35,047 nucleotides of DNA from a virus (Duplodnaviria; Heunggongvirae; Uroviricota; Caudoviricetes), in IMG/VR virus record IMGVR_UViG_2534682060_000007, positions 1 through 35,047 of that record; one strand, written 5' to 3'. A program made the position numbers and the translations under genes. The notes beneath the pieces were generated by a model that ran no database searches, was not told where the DNA came from, and saw nothing but the letters and a program-made list of their open reading frames with translations. This document shows positions 2,971 to 33,052 of the stretch, in pieces. The stretch's first letter is position 1. The number at the start of each line of letters is the position of its first letter.

Positions 2971-3004
2971 GTGTTAGAAAATACATATTAATTATCTAAC
3001 ACAA
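2971..3004. promoter_or_regulatory. operator-like inverted pair of the recurring TGTTAGA motif (site 1)
   Basis: GTGTTAGAAAAT at 2971-2982 and inverted TATCTAACACA at 2994-3004, in the 60-bp gap upstream of rdgC start. Confidence 0.45.
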
Positions 3005-14500: not shown

Positions 14501-14519
14501 AAATGTTAGAAAACTAATT
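14501..14519. promoter_or_regulatory. recurring motif site 2 (AATGTTAGAAAACTAATT)
   Basis: Direct sequence match to the recurring motif; overlaps the stop codon of the 14514-15092 gene. Confidence 0.35.
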
Positions 14520-15092
14520 TATCAATTCAATCGCCATCTGATACAACGCCATTTCATCGGCATTGTGCCGTATGAAATCTGCTTTTCCGCCTATTTTTCC
14601 ATCAGCATGAACAGGGACCAGCCAGGGATATTGTTCTCGGACCTCGGCTGGCGCTGCGTACTGGTGGTGCCATTTACACAAAGGGAGGACATATTTATGC
14701 GCGTTCTCTGCCGTTCTCCCGAAGATATGGTGCAGGGATACCACTGGGCTATGTTGCCCGTGAATATGGCAGGCAATGCAGGGGAGAGTACCGATAGCGG
14801 TCTGTATCCGGCGTTCATCGGCTGTGAGTGATCTGCCCTTCAGGCCGCGTGACGTGCGTGTTTTTTTGGACGGAGCGGATACAGCTTTCTCTTTTCTCCG
14901 CTGGTCATATTGCTTTGCTTTTTCAATTCTCTTTTGCCGATATTCAGGCGATGCGGCTTTTTCTCTCGCTCGCTGCTGCTGGCGTTGAGCTTGTTGAAGG
15001 CGCTTTGCCCTTTGTTCCTCTCGCCAGGCCGGGTCAGCCAATCTTTGCATGGCTTTTTGTCTCTGTTTCTCCCAGTAGCTCTGTTTCTGCAT
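14514..15092 (-). CDS. HNH-nuclease-domain protein (NinG/YbcO-like) with K/R-rich coiled-coil N-terminus
   Basis: C-terminal CIAC...LHHIFGRTAENAHKYVLPLCKWHH fits the C-x2-C / HH / N / H HNH pattern. Confidence 0.55.
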   Translation of the reverse strand: MQKQSYWEKQRQKAMQRLADPAWREEQRAKRLQQAQRQQQRAREKAASPEYRQKRIEKAKQYDQRRKEKAVSAPSKKTRTSRGLKGRSLTADERRIQTAIGTLPCIACHIHGQHSPVVSLHHIFGRTAENAHKYVLPLCKWHHQYAAPAEVREQYPWLVPVHADGKIGGKADFIRHNADEMALYQMAIELIN

Positions 15093-15140
15093 GATGGCTG
15101 CCTCTTACTTTTCAGCGATTTTTCTATGATTGATCAAAAT

Positions 15141-15174
15141 GGTTAGATATTCAAAATTGATTTTCTAACACAAA
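15141..15174. promoter_or_regulatory. recurring motif site 3, inverted pair in divergent promoter region
   Basis: GGTTAGATAT at 15141-15150 and inverted TTTTCTAACACA at 15161-15172, between the HNH-like gene and the rightward early operon. Confidence 0.4.
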
Positions 15175-15364
15175 ACATTAATATCATTCCTGATAACTGT
15201 TTGGAGGACATGATGCTTATAGCTTTAAGTGCGATCCACCAGCCATCTGTGAATGAGATTGGCCTGTTCTATGTGTTGTTTTTCGGGGCGTTGGCGCTAC
15301 TTGAGCTTGGTATTGAGCTTTTCGCAGTGCTTATGTTTTGCGTCACGATTTTGGGGAAATTTTG

Positions 15365-15976
15365 ATGGTGAAACGTATTTTGAAAATTTACATCGCGGGG
15401 CCGATGACTGGTTATCCAGATTACAACCGTGCGGCGTTTAATGCGAAAGCGAGCGAGCTGATGGCTGAAGGGCATATCGTTCTGAATCCAGCGGTGTTAC
15501 CTGGTGGCCTTTGCCAGAGTGAATACATGGATATTTGCCTGGCAATGGTGCGTTCTGCTGATGCGATTTATTTGCTCAATCGATGGGAAGAATCGGTTGG
15601 TGCTCGTGCAGAGCACGCGCTGGCTGAAAAGCTGGGGCTGACTGTAATTTATGAGTCACCAACCAACATTGAATGCCAGGTTGCTCCGCATATTTACCGG
15701 GAACTGGTCAATGCACTGCGTGATATCGCTGCTGTATATCACGGCACAGAACAGCTTCGTGAGCGTTTAGCCCATACCATTTCCTATTACCTTTCTTTAT
15801 CTCATGAGCACAAGCTCCGCCAGAAGGTAATGATCAAATTTATCATGAGGTTATCGAAATCCCTGGCAAACGCCGATCCAAAGAATCCATTACCGAAAGA
15901 GGCAATGAATTACCTGAAGTCCTGCAACGTTGTTTCTGAAGATGGCGTTCTTTTGGTTAGAAGGAGTTCTGCGTGA
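15365..15976 (+). CDS. DUF4406-like protein (nucleoside 2-deoxyribosyltransferase-like fold) with C-terminal extension
   Basis: IYIAGPMTGYPDYNRAAF motif typical of DUF4406 / N-deoxyribosyltransferase-like proteins; start at ATG 15365. Confidence 0.6.
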   Translation: MVKRILKIYIAGPMTGYPDYNRAAFNAKASELMAEGHIVLNPAVLPGGLCQSEYMDICLAMVRSADAIYLLNRWEESVGARAEHALAEKLGLTVIYESPTNIECQVAPHIYRELVNALRDIAAVYHGTEQLRERLAHTISYYLSLSHEHKLRQKVMIKFIMRLSKSLANADPKNPLPKEAMNYLKSCNVVSEDGVLLVRRSSA

Positions 15977-16290
15977 GCTGGCGGGGATGGGGAAGGGCAG
16001 AAATCATGATACTCCGCCAGTGCGCCGGAGCTATGACGGTCGAGAGTATTGGGAAGCTGATCGGTCGTACCGGTGATGCCGTCAGGACTAAAGCGCGAGA
16101 GCTTGGGATCAGCATGATTCTGAAAGGTGACTTTCACCAGTCAGCCAAATACCGGCAGAGCGATATAGAGCTGGCGCGGCAGCTTCATCAGTGTGGCGTT
16201 CCCCGCCGTGAGATCGCGGAAAAACTCGAAATGCCCCTGAGCATGATTAATCAGTACGTTTATTTCGAAAGGAGAGTGTATGAAGTCTGA
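15973..16290 (+). CDS. small putative DNA-binding protein
   Basis: 105-aa ORF with two HTH-like segments; overlaps neighbours. Confidence 0.5.
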   Translation: MSWRGWGRAEIMILRQCAGAMTVESIGKLIGRTGDAVRTKARELGISMILKGDFHQSAKYRQSDIELARQLHQCGVPRREIAEKLEMPLSMINQYVYFERRVYEV

Positions 16291-16768
16291 AGGTTTAACG
16301 CCCGCACAACTGGCAGAGCGTAACGCTGAGTATGTAACGGAAATTTCCCGACTTGAGAAAGCGTGTGCTGCGCTGGCGGCGGAGAATGCTGGGCTGAAAC
16401 ATGCAATGGCTGTAACTCTTGAGCATGTGTCGGTCACGGATGCAGGTCAGGCCGGAGTTGCTGCAATGATTATCAACGATGCCCTGCACCACAGCGAAAC
16501 TCCAGCCACCGATGCTTTTCTGGCTGAAATTCGTGCGGCGGCTCGCAACGAGGGGATTAACTATACCGCAAGCCGTCTTGCTGCTGCTTTCAACCACGGA
16601 TTTATCAATAAGTCTTTACGTGAAGTTTTCGACGTTACGCGCATGATTCTGTCAGCGAAAGAAGAGTTGGCTAATGAACCGCACCCGATTGATGGCCTGT
16701 CCGGTGAATATGCGGAGAAATCCCTTGAAGAATGGGCGGAACAGATTCGCAAAGGAGCTGACAAGTGA
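16280..16768 (+). CDS. paralogous coiled-coil early protein (Ea22-like family), copy 1
   Basis: Coiled-coil LEKACAALAAENAGLK and C-terminal domain shared with 17172-17969 and 17966-18607 (TD.FL.E......EG....A.R....GFI...........ARMIL...E...N, ...IRKG). Confidence 0.6.
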   Translation: MKSEGLTPAQLAERNAEYVTEISRLEKACAALAAENAGLKHAMAVTLEHVSVTDAGQAGVAAMIINDALHHSETPATDAFLAEIRAAARNEGINYTASRLAAAFNHGFINKSLREVFDVTRMILSAKEELANEPHPIDGLSGEYAEKSLEEWAEQIRKGADK

Positions 16769-17175
16769 AGAGGATGATTTTTGTGGCGGCATTGCTGACC
16801 ATTACCCAACAGGCGCAGGCTTCAGCAGTTATTGTGGCATCTACCGCCGCGACCACGGCTGCTGTAGCTGCTGCGAACTCTGCGAATATCGCAAACCAAC
16901 AGTCACAGCGTGCTGCCAATGCATCAGCCAGTGTTCACCCAATCGCCATTAAGGCCAGCAAGAAAAATATAGGTTTCATAACATGCGGCAAACGTTCTGA
17001 CGAGGCTGTAGGTTCACTTGGATGTACGGTATATGGGGATAGTGAGAGTAGAGAAATTCCATGGAAAACGTGGCCCGGATATGTTCTCGGCTCGAAGCTC
17101 CCTGCCAGCTATGAAGTAAACGCCGTATCGTTTGATCACTATAACGGCGTGGCAACGGTCTATTTTGCATATTGA
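16765..17175 (+). CDS. secreted hypothetical protein
   Basis: Signal peptide MKRMIFVAALLTITQQAQA; ATGA overlap with upstream gene. Confidence 0.5.
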   Translation: MKRMIFVAALLTITQQAQASAVIVASTAATTAAVAAANSANIANQQSQRAANASASVHPIAIKASKKNIGFITCGKRSDEAVGSLGCTVYGDSESREIPWKTWPGYVLGSKLPASYEVNAVSFDHYNGVATVYFAY

Positions 17176-17969
17176 GGCTCCGCATGAAATTCTCCAAATT
17201 TTCTGAGTTGGTGAATCGTATTTTGTCCAACAACCACAGCCATCGTCGCGATATGGATGTAACGATCGTTGTTCATTCGCCTGGCAGCATTGGTTCAACA
17301 CCCTCAGTTGAGGTTCAGTCAATTCACGCTGGTTTTGATTGGGATTCCGGGAAAGTGCTGATTTTCCCAGCACAGCCACTGACTACGCTAACACCAGAAC
17401 AGATTACTGATATTACTGATAGTGTGCGCAAAGGTCAGTCCTGGCACGCATATCAGGAATATAAGAAGCATAAAGAGCAGTTGGAAAAATTATCGATTGA
17501 ACTTGATACCGCAAAACAGCGCATTGCAGAGCTGGAGGGTAATCGCGCGGCGCTGGCTGCGGAGAATGCGAGACTGAAGGCGATATGTGAGGATCGCCGC
17601 ACGTTCATTATGAATGGCGTGCAGCTTGGTTTTATCAAAGTGCCAACAGTGGAAATAGATCCAGCTCTTGAAACAATTCGTATCGCCCTATCACCACAAA
17701 AAACCACTCCTGCGACCGACACTTTCCTGGATGAAGTGAAGACTGAAGCACGCAAGGAGGGCGCTTACTTTGTGGCGAACAGAATGCTGGCTGCTTGGGA
17801 AGCTGGTTTTATTGATGATACTGCGAAGAACGCCGCGGATATTGCCCGGATGATTCTTACCTCTACTGAGTTTATGGCTAATGCGCGGGAAGGCGATTTT
17901 GACCGCTCATTCTCTGATGGCGTTCTCGAAGATATCGCTGAACAGCTTCGCAAAGGAGGCAGCCAGTGA
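17172..17969 (+). CDS. paralogous coiled-coil early protein (Ea22-like family), copy 2
   Basis: Coiled coil AKQRIAELEGNRAALAAENARLK plus shared C-terminal domain ending EQLRKGG. Confidence 0.6.
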   Translation: MRLRMKFSKFSELVNRILSNNHSHRRDMDVTIVVHSPGSIGSTPSVEVQSIHAGFDWDSGKVLIFPAQPLTTLTPEQITDITDSVRKGQSWHAYQEYKKHKEQLEKLSIELDTAKQRIAELEGNRAALAAENARLKAICEDRRTFIMNGVQLGFIKVPTVEIDPALETIRIALSPQKTTPATDTFLDEVKTEARKEGAYFVANRMLAAWEAGFIDDTAKNAADIARMILTSTEFMANAREGDFDRSFSDGVLEDIAEQLRKGGSQ

Positions 17970-18607
17970 GCGAGCTTTACTATCATACGTTACGTGAACG
18001 TTTTTCACCGAAACCAGCGCCTAAATGCTCTGTTTGTGGCGAGGAAATGTCAATGCAGCGCATATCTGGATCACATGTTGTTTATGCCTGTTCCGGCATG
18101 GAGGACGACGGATGCTTCAAAACTGGACGAACTTATGCTGACGAGCATTACAAAAAATCGCGCATAACAGTAGTTGATGATAGCGATCCTGATGTGATTG
18201 AACTGCTGGACGAGAACATGGAGATGGCTCTAACGCTTGAGAAGCTGCGTGTTGAGCTGGAGGCTGCTAAACAGCGTATTGCCGAATATGAAAGCAATTG
18301 CGGGGCGATGGTGGCGGAATGCCAAAGCAAAAAAGCAGCACTTGAGGCAATTCTTAGCCATTGCCCAATTAATCATCCAGATATAGACATCGCATGTATA
18401 GCGAACATCGCTCATAACGAATTAGGCGAGGCGAAAAGCACTACATCTAAGGCATACCTTGTAGAAATACAGGCACAAGGGGTGGAGGCATTCGCTTTGA
18501 CGATGCGCGATACCGGAGATGATCCATTTTTTGATTCCGTTGCTTCTGCTTGCGCGGATGCAGCTGATAGGTTCGCTGACCAGCTTCGAAAAGGAGGCAA
18601 ACAGTGA
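17966..18607 (+). CDS. paralogous coiled-coil early protein (Ea22-like family), copy 3
   Basis: LTLEKLRVELEAAKQRIAEYE coiled coil; N-terminal Cys pairs; C-terminus ADQLRKGGKQ. Confidence 0.6.
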   Translation: MSELYYHTLRERFSPKPAPKCSVCGEEMSMQRISGSHVVYACSGMEDDGCFKTGRTYADEHYKKSRITVVDDSDPDVIELLDENMEMALTLEKLRVELEAAKQRIAEYESNCGAMVAECQSKKAALEAILSHCPINHPDIDIACIANIAHNELGEAKSTTSKAYLVEIQAQGVEAFALTMRDTGDDPFFDSVASACADAADRFADQLRKGGKQ

Positions 18608-20366: not shown

Positions 20367-20400
20367 ACGTTAGAACATTGATTTTAGTTTTCTAACATAT
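20367..20400. promoter_or_regulatory. recurring motif site 4, inverted pair
   Basis: CGTTAGAACA at about 20368-20377 and inverted GTTTTCTAACATA at 20387-20399, just upstream of the 20440 gene. Confidence 0.4.
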
Positions 20401-22141: not shown

Positions 22142-23020
22142 GTGAGTATGCATCAAGTTGTCAGCTTTTCAGGTGGACGAACATCGGCTTATCTCGTTCA
22201 TCTGATGGAAGCACAGCGAAAAGCTGGCGCTAGCGTCCATTTCATTTTTATGGATACCGGCTGTGAACATCCTCTGACGTATCGCTTTATTCGTGAGGTT
22301 GTGAAGTTCTGGAACGTACCGCTAACGGTGTTGCAGGTCGATATAAATCCAGAACTTGGGCAGCCAAATGGTTATACGGAATGGGAACCAAAGGATATTC
22401 AGACGCGAATGCCGGTGCTTAAACCGTTTATGGACATGGTTAAAAAGTACGGTACGCCTTACATCGGCGGCGCGTTCTGTACTGACAGGCTAAAACTCAC
22501 CCCTTTCACGAAATATTGCGATGACCATTTTGGGCGAGGGAATTACATCACATGGCTGGGTATTCGTGCGGACGAACACCGTAGGCTGAAACCGAAACCG
22601 GGCGTCCGGTATCTTGCAGAACTGTCAGATTTTGATAAGTCGGATGTTATTCGGTGGTGGCGAAAACAACCTTTTGATTTGCAAATCCCGGAGCACCTCG
22701 GGAACTGTGTTTTTTGCATCAAAAAGTCAACGCAAAAGCTGGGGCTTGCATGTAAAGACGAACCTGGTCTGATGCGGGTTTTTAATGAACTGGTTACAGG
22801 CAAACACGTCAGGGATGGTCATCGCAGAACAGGTAAAGACGTTATGTACCGTGGTCACCTGACGCTTGACGGGATTGCCAGAATGTATGCCGACAGCGAC
22901 TACAGAAATTTGTATCAGGCGATGGTGCAGGCCAAGCGGTTTGATACTGGTTCGTGTTCCGAATCATGTGAAATCTGGGGTGACCAATTGGAGTTGAAAT
23001 TCGAAGAGGTAGTGGTATGA
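22142..23020 (+). CDS. phosphoadenosine-phosphosulfate (PAPS) reductase-family protein
   Basis: PP-loop VVSFSGGRTSAYL near N-terminus; several Cys clusters toward C-terminus. Confidence 0.7.
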   Translation: MSMHQVVSFSGGRTSAYLVHLMEAQRKAGASVHFIFMDTGCEHPLTYRFIREVVKFWNVPLTVLQVDINPELGQPNGYTEWEPKDIQTRMPVLKPFMDMVKKYGTPYIGGAFCTDRLKLTPFTKYCDDHFGRGNYITWLGIRADEHRRLKPKPGVRYLAELSDFDKSDVIRWWRKQPFDLQIPEHLGNCVFCIKKSTQKLGLACKDEPGLMRVFNELVTGKHVRDGHRRTGKDVMYRGHLTLDGIARMYADSDYRNLYQAMVQAKRFDTGSCSESCEIWGDQLELKFEEVVV

Positions 23021-23583
23021 CAAACAAAATTGACTATCAAAAACTTCGTGAAATCGCTGAAAAAACAAAAATTGCTGGTGAAGCACCTGTAATGCCTTTC
23101 GATCAGCGAATTAATGCGCTTAACGATTTTATGAAGCACTTTTCGCCAGATATCGCGCTGGCATTGTTGGATGAACGGGAAAGAAACCAGCAATACATCA
23201 AACGCCGCGACCAGGAGAACGAGGAAATTGCGCTAACGGTAGGGAAGCTGCGTGTTGAGCTGGAAGCCGCAGAGAAGCGCATTGCAGAACTGGAAGCACG
23301 GGAAATAAAACCAGCCAAAGGCGAAGTTCTTGTCGTTGTTTCTGGTTTTACTGGTTGCGGAAAAAGCGCCATCGCCGGGGAAATAGAAATTGCGATGAAA
23401 GCTATTGGTGTGCCGGTTCAATGGACTAATGGCGATGCAGAAAAGCATATGACCGGCGCTGACTGGCTGACAGCGATTGAGATGTACAAACCAACTGTGC
23501 GCATCGTGGAAGTTAATGTGCCACGCGTCGCTGGCATTTGCATCAAAGGAGACGCAGGAGAGCAAAACGATGAAAAACCGTAA
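23017..23583 (+). CDS. coiled-coil early protein related to the Ea22-like paralogs
   Basis: Shares LTVGKLRVELEAAEKRIAELE segment, also at DNA level, with 17966-18607. Confidence 0.55.
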   Translation: MTNKIDYQKLREIAEKTKIAGEAPVMPFDQRINALNDFMKHFSPDIALALLDERERNQQYIKRRDQENEEIALTVGKLRVELEAAEKRIAELEAREIKPAKGEVLVVVSGFTGCGKSAIAGEIEIAMKAIGVPVQWTNGDAEKHMTGADWLTAIEMYKPTVRIVEVNVPRVAGICIKGDAGEQNDEKP

Positions 23584-31621: not shown

Positions 31622-31640
31622 GATGTGTTAGAAATTTAAT
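31622..31640. promoter_or_regulatory. recurring motif site 5 (GATGTGTTAGAAATTTAATT)
   Basis: In the 73-bp gap between the Cre-like gene and the downstream operon. Confidence 0.4.
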
Positions 31641-33032: not shown

Positions 33033-33052
33033 TTTATGTTAGAAAACTAAAT
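33033..33052. promoter_or_regulatory. recurring motif site 6 (TTTATGTTAGAAAACTAAAT)
   Basis: About 13 bp upstream of the 33065 start codon; a related TTTTCTAAAATTGA lies at about 32955-32970. Confidence 0.4.

Follow-up and report, generated by a model that had tools for sequence, protein, structure and literature searches.

The gene at positions 15365–15976 of the window (the whole 35,047-nt stretch of DNA analysed here) encodes a 203-aa protein with an N-terminal domain of the nucleoside 2'-deoxyribosyltransferase (NDT) superfamily. We tentatively read this protein, at somewhat less than an even chance, as a 2'-deoxynucleoside 5'-monophosphate (dNMP) N-glycosidase of the DNPH1 type, in which Glu83 would be the nucleophile, which would be made early from the second cistron of its operon, and whose C-terminal modules would serve in assembly or partner binding. 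The gene and its domain are located as follows:

15365–15976, plus strand: DUF4406 coding sequence, 203 aa, a DUF4406 domain followed by a C-terminal helical extension.
15383–15652, plus strand: DUF4406 domain (residues 7–96), a minimal NDT/DNPH1-like alpha/beta domain.

The reading frame runs from an ATG at 15365 to a stop codon ending at 15976, and its translation opens MVKRILKIYIAGPMTG. The counterpart in phage D6, a P1-like plasmid prophage of Escherichia, is orf89 (97% DNA identity), annotated as 'DUF4406 domain-containing protein; similar to N-term half gp57 of phage N15', and a 100% identical protein (P0003) also carries the name DUF4406 domain-containing protein. PHROG 5781, a family of unknown function, is matched over the full length of the protein (E 7e-102). 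Many plasmids of ~92 kb from E. coli and Salmonella match the region with ~98% identity, and the segment made up of the gene and its small leader ORF was found in 99 of 5,426 complete E. coli genomes, in every case on a plasmid of ~91–97 kb and never on a chromosome. The window reads as a D6-like (P1-like) phage-plasmid. The 203-aa protein is an already annotated accessory gene product from a common, uncharacterised phage family, so the novelty of the gene is low.

An earlier note on this DNA had proposed a DUF4406 protein with an N-deoxyribosyltransferase-like fold and a C-terminal extension of about 100 aa, and had named an HMM search as a check. The Pfam DUF4406 profile (PF14359) scores 116.4 bits on the product (E 7.8e-34; gathering cut-off 22 bits), aligning positions 2–91 of its 91, and the extension, residues 97–203, measures 107 aa. 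With the profile covered over nearly its whole length and an extension of this size, the core observation of the note was correct. The residues that are invariant in the family (G12, F25, P42, Y54, S77, G79 and E83) are all present in the 203-aa protein. PHROG 355, which is named 'nucleoside 2-deoxyribosyltransferase', matches residues 7–134 (E 3e-43).

An AlphaFold2 monomer model, built on 30 homologues, has a four-stranded alpha/beta domain that is confident over residues ~1–100 (block pLDDT mostly 87–98). Foldseek searches of the PDB with this domain returned NDTs (T. brucei, Leishmania, Chroococcidiopsis, Bacillus and Desulfotalea), DNPH1/Rcl, MilB and BcmB, all with a probability of 1.00 and E-values from 6.6e-4 up, and the flavodoxin-like alpha/beta fold can be superposed on the solved NDT, DNPH1 and MilB members. 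Among the BFVD structures many phage 'deoxyribosyltransferase' and DUF4406 models were matched, in all cases by the N-terminal domain only. A single-sequence search of the PDB sequences gave chance matches only (E ~0.7–1) and was replaced by a search with a 62-sequence domain profile, for which the T. brucei NDT was the best match (E 2e-4). Pfam, PHROG, Foldseek and the PDB profile search thus agree, and the assignment of residues 7–96 to the NDT superfamily is fully supported.

The catalytic triad of the NDT superfamily is Tyr/Asp(Asn)/Glu, with Asn in place of Asp in the NDT of T. brucei; within the triad, the Tyr constrains the Glu and shuts out ribo-substrates (PMC12884076). The dNMP hydrolases are without the Asp/Asn residues that hold the 5'-OH in the transferases and have small uncharged residues instead (PMC12884076). 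The corresponding codons in the window are:

15389–15391, plus strand: Tyr9, in strand 1 (KIYIAGP).
15536–15538, plus strand: Cys58, the third-triad position.
15593–15595, plus strand: Ser77, the 5'-substituent site.
15611–15613, plus strand: Glu83, the nucleophile position.

Conservation was counted in 127 diverse relatives, each with <75% identity. The KIYIAGP segment around Tyr9 is identical in the T. brucei NDT, and BlsM has a Phe at this position in the profile alignment; the relatives carry Tyr (113/127) or Phe (13/127). Glu83 aligns with the Glu of both PDCGTAFE in the T. brucei NDT and PSPGTHVE in BlsM and is present in all 127 relatives, on the helix after the S/D-x-G turn where the superfamily requires its catalytic Glu. 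Ser77 is likewise found in 127/127 and aligns with the Asp of the former motif and the Ser of the latter. It is thus one of the small uncharged residues (Ser, Val or Gly) expected at the 5'-substituent site of a dNMP hydrolase, and the Asp (or Asn) that would bind a nucleoside 5'-OH is absent. Gly79 (126/127) and Tyr54 (125/127) are kept almost throughout, and A80 is nearly invariant.

Position 58 behaves differently from these. Here the third triad residue, Asp or Asn, is absent, and Cys58 aligns with the Asn of the QKN motif in the T. brucei NDT. Cys is found in 83 of the 127 relatives (65%), Asp in 15, Asn in 3 and one of A/T/G/S in 26, and the actinophage members, with a Y-(L/M)-R-R-D motif around this position, have kept the canonical Asp. 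The earlier note had named a lack of conserved catalytic residues as the outcome that would speak against it. Glu83 and Tyr9 are conserved, so this outcome was not found, but with Cys58 as its third member the triad is still incomplete. As judged from these alignments, the protein reads as deoxy-selective (Tyr9), 5'-phosphate-accepting (Ser77-x-Gly79) and dependent on a Glu nucleophile (Glu83), with a non-canonical Cys58.

In the reaction that we propose, Glu83 would attack C1' to give a covalent deoxyribosyl-5-phosphate-enzyme intermediate. Tyr9 would orient Glu83 and disfavour substrates with a 2'-OH, while the 5'-phosphate would be held by Ser77-x-Gly79, with Ser77 placed at its site by sequence alignment, together with the GPM(T/S)G loop. 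Water would then free deoxyribose 5-phosphate and the free base. As Cys58 takes the place of the base-protonating Asp/Asn, the chemistry or the preferred leaving group might differ from those of DNPH1. The DUF4406 domain is also ~40–60 residues shorter than the characterised NDT/DNPH1 enzymes and may lack the elements that are given in trans across the NDT/DNPH1 dimer. Such an activity could serve to reshape or sanitise the pool of dNMPs in the early lytic phase.

The genomic contexts of the family fit in with a role in nucleotide metabolism. An exhaustive HMMER scan (E <= 1e-3) gave 9,604 DUF4406 clusters at 50% identity, and the domain is found in 637 of 50,697 phage records (~1.3%), among them records for Mycobacterium (201), Vibrio (124), Arthrobacter (86) and Gordonia (68). 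Where contexts were sampled, the DUF4406 gene sits in early or DNA-metabolism modules: it comes after the genes for a helicase, exonuclease VIII, Erf, SSB and an endonuclease in Escherichia phage C130_2, is flanked by WhiB and DnaQ-like genes in ZoeJ, and has a PAPS-reductase gene on one side and a MazG-like gene on the other in Optimus. The closest stand-alone relatives (60–67% identity) were followed in 78 IMG/VR loci, where they are found just after the replication genes, most commonly in the order replication protein O/HTH_36, IstB-like or DnaB, DUF1627, DUF977, DUF4406 and Ead/Ea22-like; in some of these loci a Dam methylase gene is nearby.

DUF4406 domains are also fused or adjacent to MazG-like or (d)NTP pyrophosphohydrolases, as seen in PHROG 12019, in BFVD proteins named 'dATP/dGTP diphosphohydrolase N-terminal domain' and in Optimus (gp161 and gp163). 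By guilt by association, these arrangements suggest a route in two steps, in which a dNTP would first become a dNMP and the dNMP would then yield the base and deoxyribose 5-phosphate. A comparable route operates in the Z-genome phages through their DutZ/DmtZ pair (PMC12884076). Our searches for work on DUF4406/PF14359 and on phage and mycobacteriophage NDTs found no functional study in the searchable literature.

In the C-terminal extension (residues 97–203) AlphaFold2 predicts five helices, with a pLDDT of only 50–77. Pfam searches with the extension alone gave noise only (BID and INT1_R3), and a word-index search with it gave fragments of the same protein only. No second copy was found within the window, and D6 has a second place with a match to the extension. 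Two modules can be told apart:

15677–15826, plus strand: module A, helical (residues 105–154), common to the N-termini of P1 PmgU and the P22-type EaA/Eaa2 proteins.
15827–15952, plus strand: module B, C-terminal (~residues 155–196), pLDDT 50–65.

Module A is 44% identical over 50 aa to residues 14–62 of P1 PmgU (BLASTP, E 2e-12). The N-terminus of ST64T Eaa2, a DUF551 protein, reads IREIVNELHDIAIEYHGTQQLRERIARTV and aligns with IYRELVNALRDIAAVYHGTEQLRERLAHTI in module A. Directly upstream of Eaa2 in ST64T lies Eaa1, a dATP/dGTP pyrophosphohydrolase (PF04447), and both are annotated as parts of P22 eaA. By tblastn, module A occurs in 174 phage records, and it was also seen in several PHROGs of unknown function. 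In lambdoid prophages, proteins whose genes lie one or two places downstream of a stand-alone DUF4406 gene have C-termini that resemble module B, which also gives weak C-terminal matches to PHROG 660/924. BLASTP gave no match between the extension and a neighbour protein whose tail is plainly similar. Despite this null result we take the likeness between the tails to be real, since Smith-Waterman scores for module B were 64–71, as compared to 27 +/- 5 (maximum 52) for 500 shuffles. The related proteins carry many other N- or C-terminal partners, among them Ea22-type tails ending in RKGGxQ, DUF551, DUF4752 and a ClpX-type zinc finger.

Since each module is found in other phage proteins, the extension reads as a recombinational patchwork of two mobile modules, typical of the 'ea/nin' accessory regions and with no recognisable enzyme domain. 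Its short helical modules (residues 105–196) recur in accessory proteins of enterobacterial phages and would probably serve oligomerisation or partner binding rather than catalysis. A HEPN domain in the extension was considered and rejected. PADLOC gives a weak CARF_HEPN match (E 0.0012, 16 bits, residues 68–174) and RERLAH fits the R-x4-6-H motif, but the corresponding segment in a 77%-identical relative (P0052) is RARLSN, in which the motif His is replaced by Asn.

The genes around the DUF4406 gene are the following:

14514–15092, minus strand: Ref-like RecA-dependent nuclease, the divergent neighbour (Pfam RecA_dep_nuc, E 1.3e-34; annotated in D6 as 'similar to P1 ref').
15203–15207, plus strand: GGAGG Shine-Dalgarno sequence of the small ORF, read directly and invariant in the 6-sequence alignment.
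15210–15365, plus strand: small upstream ORF of 51 aa, or 50 aa from the ATG at 15213; D6 orf88.
15973–16290, plus strand: next cistron, 105 aa with two HTH-like repeats, whose GTG start overlaps the DUF4406 stop (GTGA).

The DUF4406 gene had been described in the earlier note as the first gene of its operon, which is off by one conserved small ORF (15210–15365). As this 51-codon ORF precedes it, the DUF4406 gene is the second cistron. The TGA of the small ORF overlaps the ATG of the DUF4406 gene as TGATG, and gene callers predict the ORF in every related contig; D6 orf88 begins at the second ATG, 15213. In a diverged lineage 45 of its 156 nt differ (29%), with the differences distributed as 14/6/25 over codon positions 1/2/3, a third-position bias, while frame, length, Shine-Dalgarno sequence and overlap are kept. 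With a GRAVY of 1.64 the peptide is strongly hydrophobic, and no family in Pfam, PADLOC or NCBIfam matches it. RefSeq plasmid annotations under the match to 15200–15976 list the DUF4406 protein only, so RefSeq apparently omits the small ORF. On these sequence features the small ORF is the true first cistron, with a predicted translational coupling to the DUF4406 gene.

With stop/start overlaps at both ends of the DUF4406 gene, the cistrons are chained by overlapping codons. The 105-aa product of the next cistron gives a weak Sigma70_r4_2 match and goes by the PGAP name 'DNA-binding protein' in related plasmids. NCBIfam has no match for the DUF4406 protein, the leader peptide or this downstream product. 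A functional tie between the DUF4406 gene and the ref nuclease gene was considered, and we found nothing for it beyond the common control region.

This control region is the divergent intergenic region between ref and the small ORF (15093–15209), which contains two elements:

15142–15169, no strand assigned: operator-like inverted repeat GTTAGATATTCAA-aa-TTGATTTTCTAAC.
15157–15184, plus strand: candidate sigma-70 promoter TTGATT-16 nt-TAATAT, read by hand, 8/12 consensus.

The repeat at 15142–15169 bears out the claim that the gene lies downstream of a divergent control region with a repeated inverted motif. Similar inverted pairs are found at 2973–3000, upstream of an RdgC-like gene, and at 20369–20396, upstream of a DUF968/PdcB-like gene, and lone half-sites occur at 14505, 31627 and 33038. 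The right arm of the 15142–15169 repeat is invariant among diverged relatives. The half-site ATTGATTTTCTAACA is similar, though not identical, to the C1 operator OpmgT (ATTGCTCTAATAAATCT) that is annotated in P1. As read from the sequence, the inverted pair of TTTCTAACA-type half-sites overlaps the weak candidate -35/-10 elements, with the -35 hexamer falling within the right operator arm. No sigma-70 site came up in the ref–small ORF intergenic region with a promoter scan tool, and the promoter at 15157–15184, with its 8/12 match below the threshold of the tool, is therefore a weak candidate.

Both ref and pmgT are under C1 control in P1. Together with the C1-operator-like sites, this makes an early, repressor-controlled operon a plausible and reasonable analogy with P1. 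Transcription would probably begin at a promoter that overlaps a C1-type operator common to this operon and the divergent ref gene, and such an overlap would lead to expression on induction or infection.

Several readings compete with a dNMP N-glycosidase. A genuine NDT, which would swap bases between deoxynucleosides for salvage, agrees with the name of PHROG 355 and of many phage records, and the best PDB sequence and structure matches are indeed NDTs. Those names are transferred annotations, however. The position of the 5'-OH-binding Asp is an invariant Ser, that of the general acid/base Asp is a Cys, and the domain is without the C-terminal part of the NDTs. The 203-aa protein has no match to PF05014 even at E <= 1, and only 3 of 73 relatives match it, weakly. 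We therefore find a true transferase very unlikely. Hydrolysis of ribonucleoside 5'-monophosphates or of a modified nucleotide, as by MilB/BlsM or LOG enzymes, for example to remove a specific non-canonical nucleotide, is unlikely, given that Tyr9 is linked to the exclusion of ribo-substrates and is present here and in 89% of the relatives. The domain could also be non-catalytic, binding nucleotides or acting as a scaffold within an accessory protein of mosaic make-up with a regulatory or structural role, and its degenerate triad would then reflect lost enzymology. The variability of position 58 (C/D/A/T/G/S/N), the very small size of the domain and the former description of PmgU, which has module A too, as 'putative morphogenetic' would fit with this. 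E83 and S77 are nevertheless invariant and G79, Y54 and A80 nearly so in hundreds of diverged sequences, which argues for a maintained active site, and the actinophage versions retain the canonical Asp; we give the scaffold little chance.

Another possibility, in our view quite an unlikely one, is a role in counter-defence. The enzyme would then break the N-glycosidic bond in nucleotide immune messengers, NAD+-derived or other, or in NAD+/NMN itself, using the catalytic Glu only, as in enzymes of the TIR/CD38 type. In favour of this role are the weak resemblance of the N-domain model to TIR domains at the fold level and the arms-race-like mosaicism of the protein. Against it, neither Pfam nor PADLOC gives a TIR match for the 203-aa protein, PADLOC gives no meaningful match, and the profile similarity is to NDTs and CMP hydrolases rather than to TIR. 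Furthermore, Tyr9 and Ser77-x-Gly are features of dNMP/NMP hydrolases, the contexts are replication and nucleotide-metabolism modules, and no anti-defence role was found in the published literature searched. It is improbable, too, that DUF4406 proteins at large are widespread, unrecognised counter-defence or host-takeover enzymes. There, Glu83/Cys58 would cleave the N-glycosidic bond of NAD+/NMN, of ADPR-derived Thoeris signals or of an alarm molecule derived from dNMP/dNTP, as nucleotide-derived immune messengers or their precursors, and swappable C-terminal modules would target different partners.

The functional interpretation in the earlier note, which named either manipulation of the nucleotide pool or degradation of host signalling nucleotides, was reasonable but generic. 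Its first half is plausible and can now be made more specific. Ser77 agrees with BlsM and not with the nucleoside-specific NDT of T. brucei, which has Asp there. Together with the fusion or adjacency of related phage proteins to (d)NTP pyrophosphohydrolases, this makes a nucleotide-directed activity the best reading. Nothing speaks for the second half in particular apart from a generic resemblance of the fold to TIR domains.

The gene itself is ordinary. The DUF4406 family is very large, so a function assigned here could reach thousands of phage genes, and the Tyr9/Ser77/Glu83/Cys58 reading provides a concrete, testable prediction of the substrate. If the dNMP reading is true, it bears on whether remodelling of the dNMP pool is routine for temperate enterobacterial phages as lytic growth begins. 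For plasmids of the P1/D6 type, whose importance lies in their carriage of resistance genes, the analysis also gives two corrections to the annotation, namely the unannotated leader ORF and the modular nature of the extension.

Several known proteins can be compared with the 203-aa protein. P1 PmgU and the P22-type EaA/Eaa2 proteins are alike in module A only and unrelated in the remainder, which is DUF551 in Eaa2, and the 'putative morphogenetic' description of PmgU is no more than a label. PA1492 (PDB 1t1j; DUF1937), a structural-genomics protein, has marginal sequence similarity (E 0.93). The T. brucei NDT (2a0k, PF05014 class) is the best profile match in the PDB and the top Foldseek match, with an identical KIYIAGP segment and the Glu aligned. 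NDTs differ from DUF4406 in having Asp where DUF4406 has the invariant Ser77, and Asp/Asn at the position of Cys58. MilB, BlsM and BcmB are CMP (hydroxymethyl-CMP) N-glycosidases from antibiotic biosynthesis clusters, with ribonucleotide substrates and a Phe at the Tyr9 position; BlsM has Ser at the Ser77 position as seen here, at a sub-significant profile match (E 0.56). DNPH1/Rcl matches the DUF4406 N-domain in Foldseek with a probability of 1.00, and at the sequence level no match to DNPH1 was found in single-sequence and 62-sequence profile searches of the PDB. Compared to DNPH1/Rcl, the domain in the window is ~40 residues shorter and has Cys58 where DNPH1 has its catalytic Asp.

DmtZ of the Z-genome phages, a dAMP hydrolase/deoxyribose-5-phosphate transferase, is like DUF4406 a phage protein of the NDT superfamily, and by its description acts on dNMP (PMC12884076). 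It is ~145 aa long with five strands and comes from PurZ0 phages with 2-aminoadenine DNA, whereas D6-like elements have no sign of modified DNA. In DmtZ the third triad residue is a non-Asp residue, Asn, small uncharged residues are found at the 5'-phosphate site, and the gene adjoins, or is fused with, that of a dNTP/dUTP pyrophosphatase (PMC12884076).

The start of the DUF4406 gene overlaps the stop codon of a small upstream ORF, and the gene is followed by a translationally coupled gene for an HTH-like protein.

15210-15365, + strand: small ORF, conserved, strongly hydrophobic product of 50-51 aa (MMLIALSAIHQPSVNEIGLFYVLFFGALALLELGIELFAVLMFCVTILGKF)
15973-16290, + strand: HTH-like protein gene, 105 aa, two HTH-like repeats, weak match to Sigma70 region 4

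The small ORF has a GGAGG Shine-Dalgarno sequence and is annotated as orf88 in phage D6, and RefSeq plasmid annotations list the DUF4406 protein alone under the match spanning it. Its product might act on membranes as a small early peptide. Of 78 related viral loci, 15 have homologues of the HTH-like protein (cluster 7) encoded next to DUF4406 genes. Compared with window 15365-16290, the E. coli protein P0058 (191 aa) is a natural deletion variant in which the DUF4406 protein, up to about residue 150, continues in frame into the C-terminal half of the HTH-like protein encoded downstream.

The window also encodes a series of mosaic proteins, Ead/Ea22-like or related to these, with the tail ...(I/L)RKG(G/A)xx.

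16280-16768, + strand: mosaic protein
17172-17969, + strand: mosaic protein
17966-18607, + strand: mosaic protein
23017-23583, + strand: mosaic protein

In other phages this tail is fused straight to DUF4406 domains (proteins P0071 and P0128). In Salmonella phage ST64T (L008, 671-2028) the Eaa2 (DUF551) protein starts with module A, the helical segment at residues 105-154 of the window DUF4406 protein. Immediately before Eaa2 comes Eaa1, a dATP/dGTP pyrophosphohydrolase (PF04447); the record notes describe the two as one protein, EaA, in P22. Module A therefore comes after two different nucleotide-hydrolase domains.

Where enterobacterial DUF4406 domains read Y-M-D-I-C, those of actinophages (ZoeJ, L010 2980-3303; Optimus, L011 2474-2851) read Y-(L/M)-R-R-D and thus retain the Asp of the canonical triad, which is Cys in the enterobacterial subfamily. 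In mycobacteriophage Optimus a PAPS-reductase gene (L011 1608-2450) lies directly upstream of the DUF4406 gene, and the window encodes a protein with this domain in the same gene array as its DUF4406 gene.

22142-23020, + strand: PAPS-reductase-domain protein, about 6 kb downstream of the DUF4406 gene

The D6 annotations for the equivalent stretch do not include this protein. The pairing with DUF4406 in the window and Optimus may be due to chance or reflect an association that recurs.

An operator-like motif with TTTCTAACA-type half-sites recurs in the window, three times as inverted pairs.

2973-3000: inverted pair, upstream of the RdgC-like gene
15142-15169: inverted pair, upstream of ref and the small ORF
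20369-20396: inverted pair, upstream of the DUF968/PdcB-like gene
14505-14517, 31627-31639 and 33038-33050: half-sites

The motif is similar to the P1 C1 operator, yet distinct from it.
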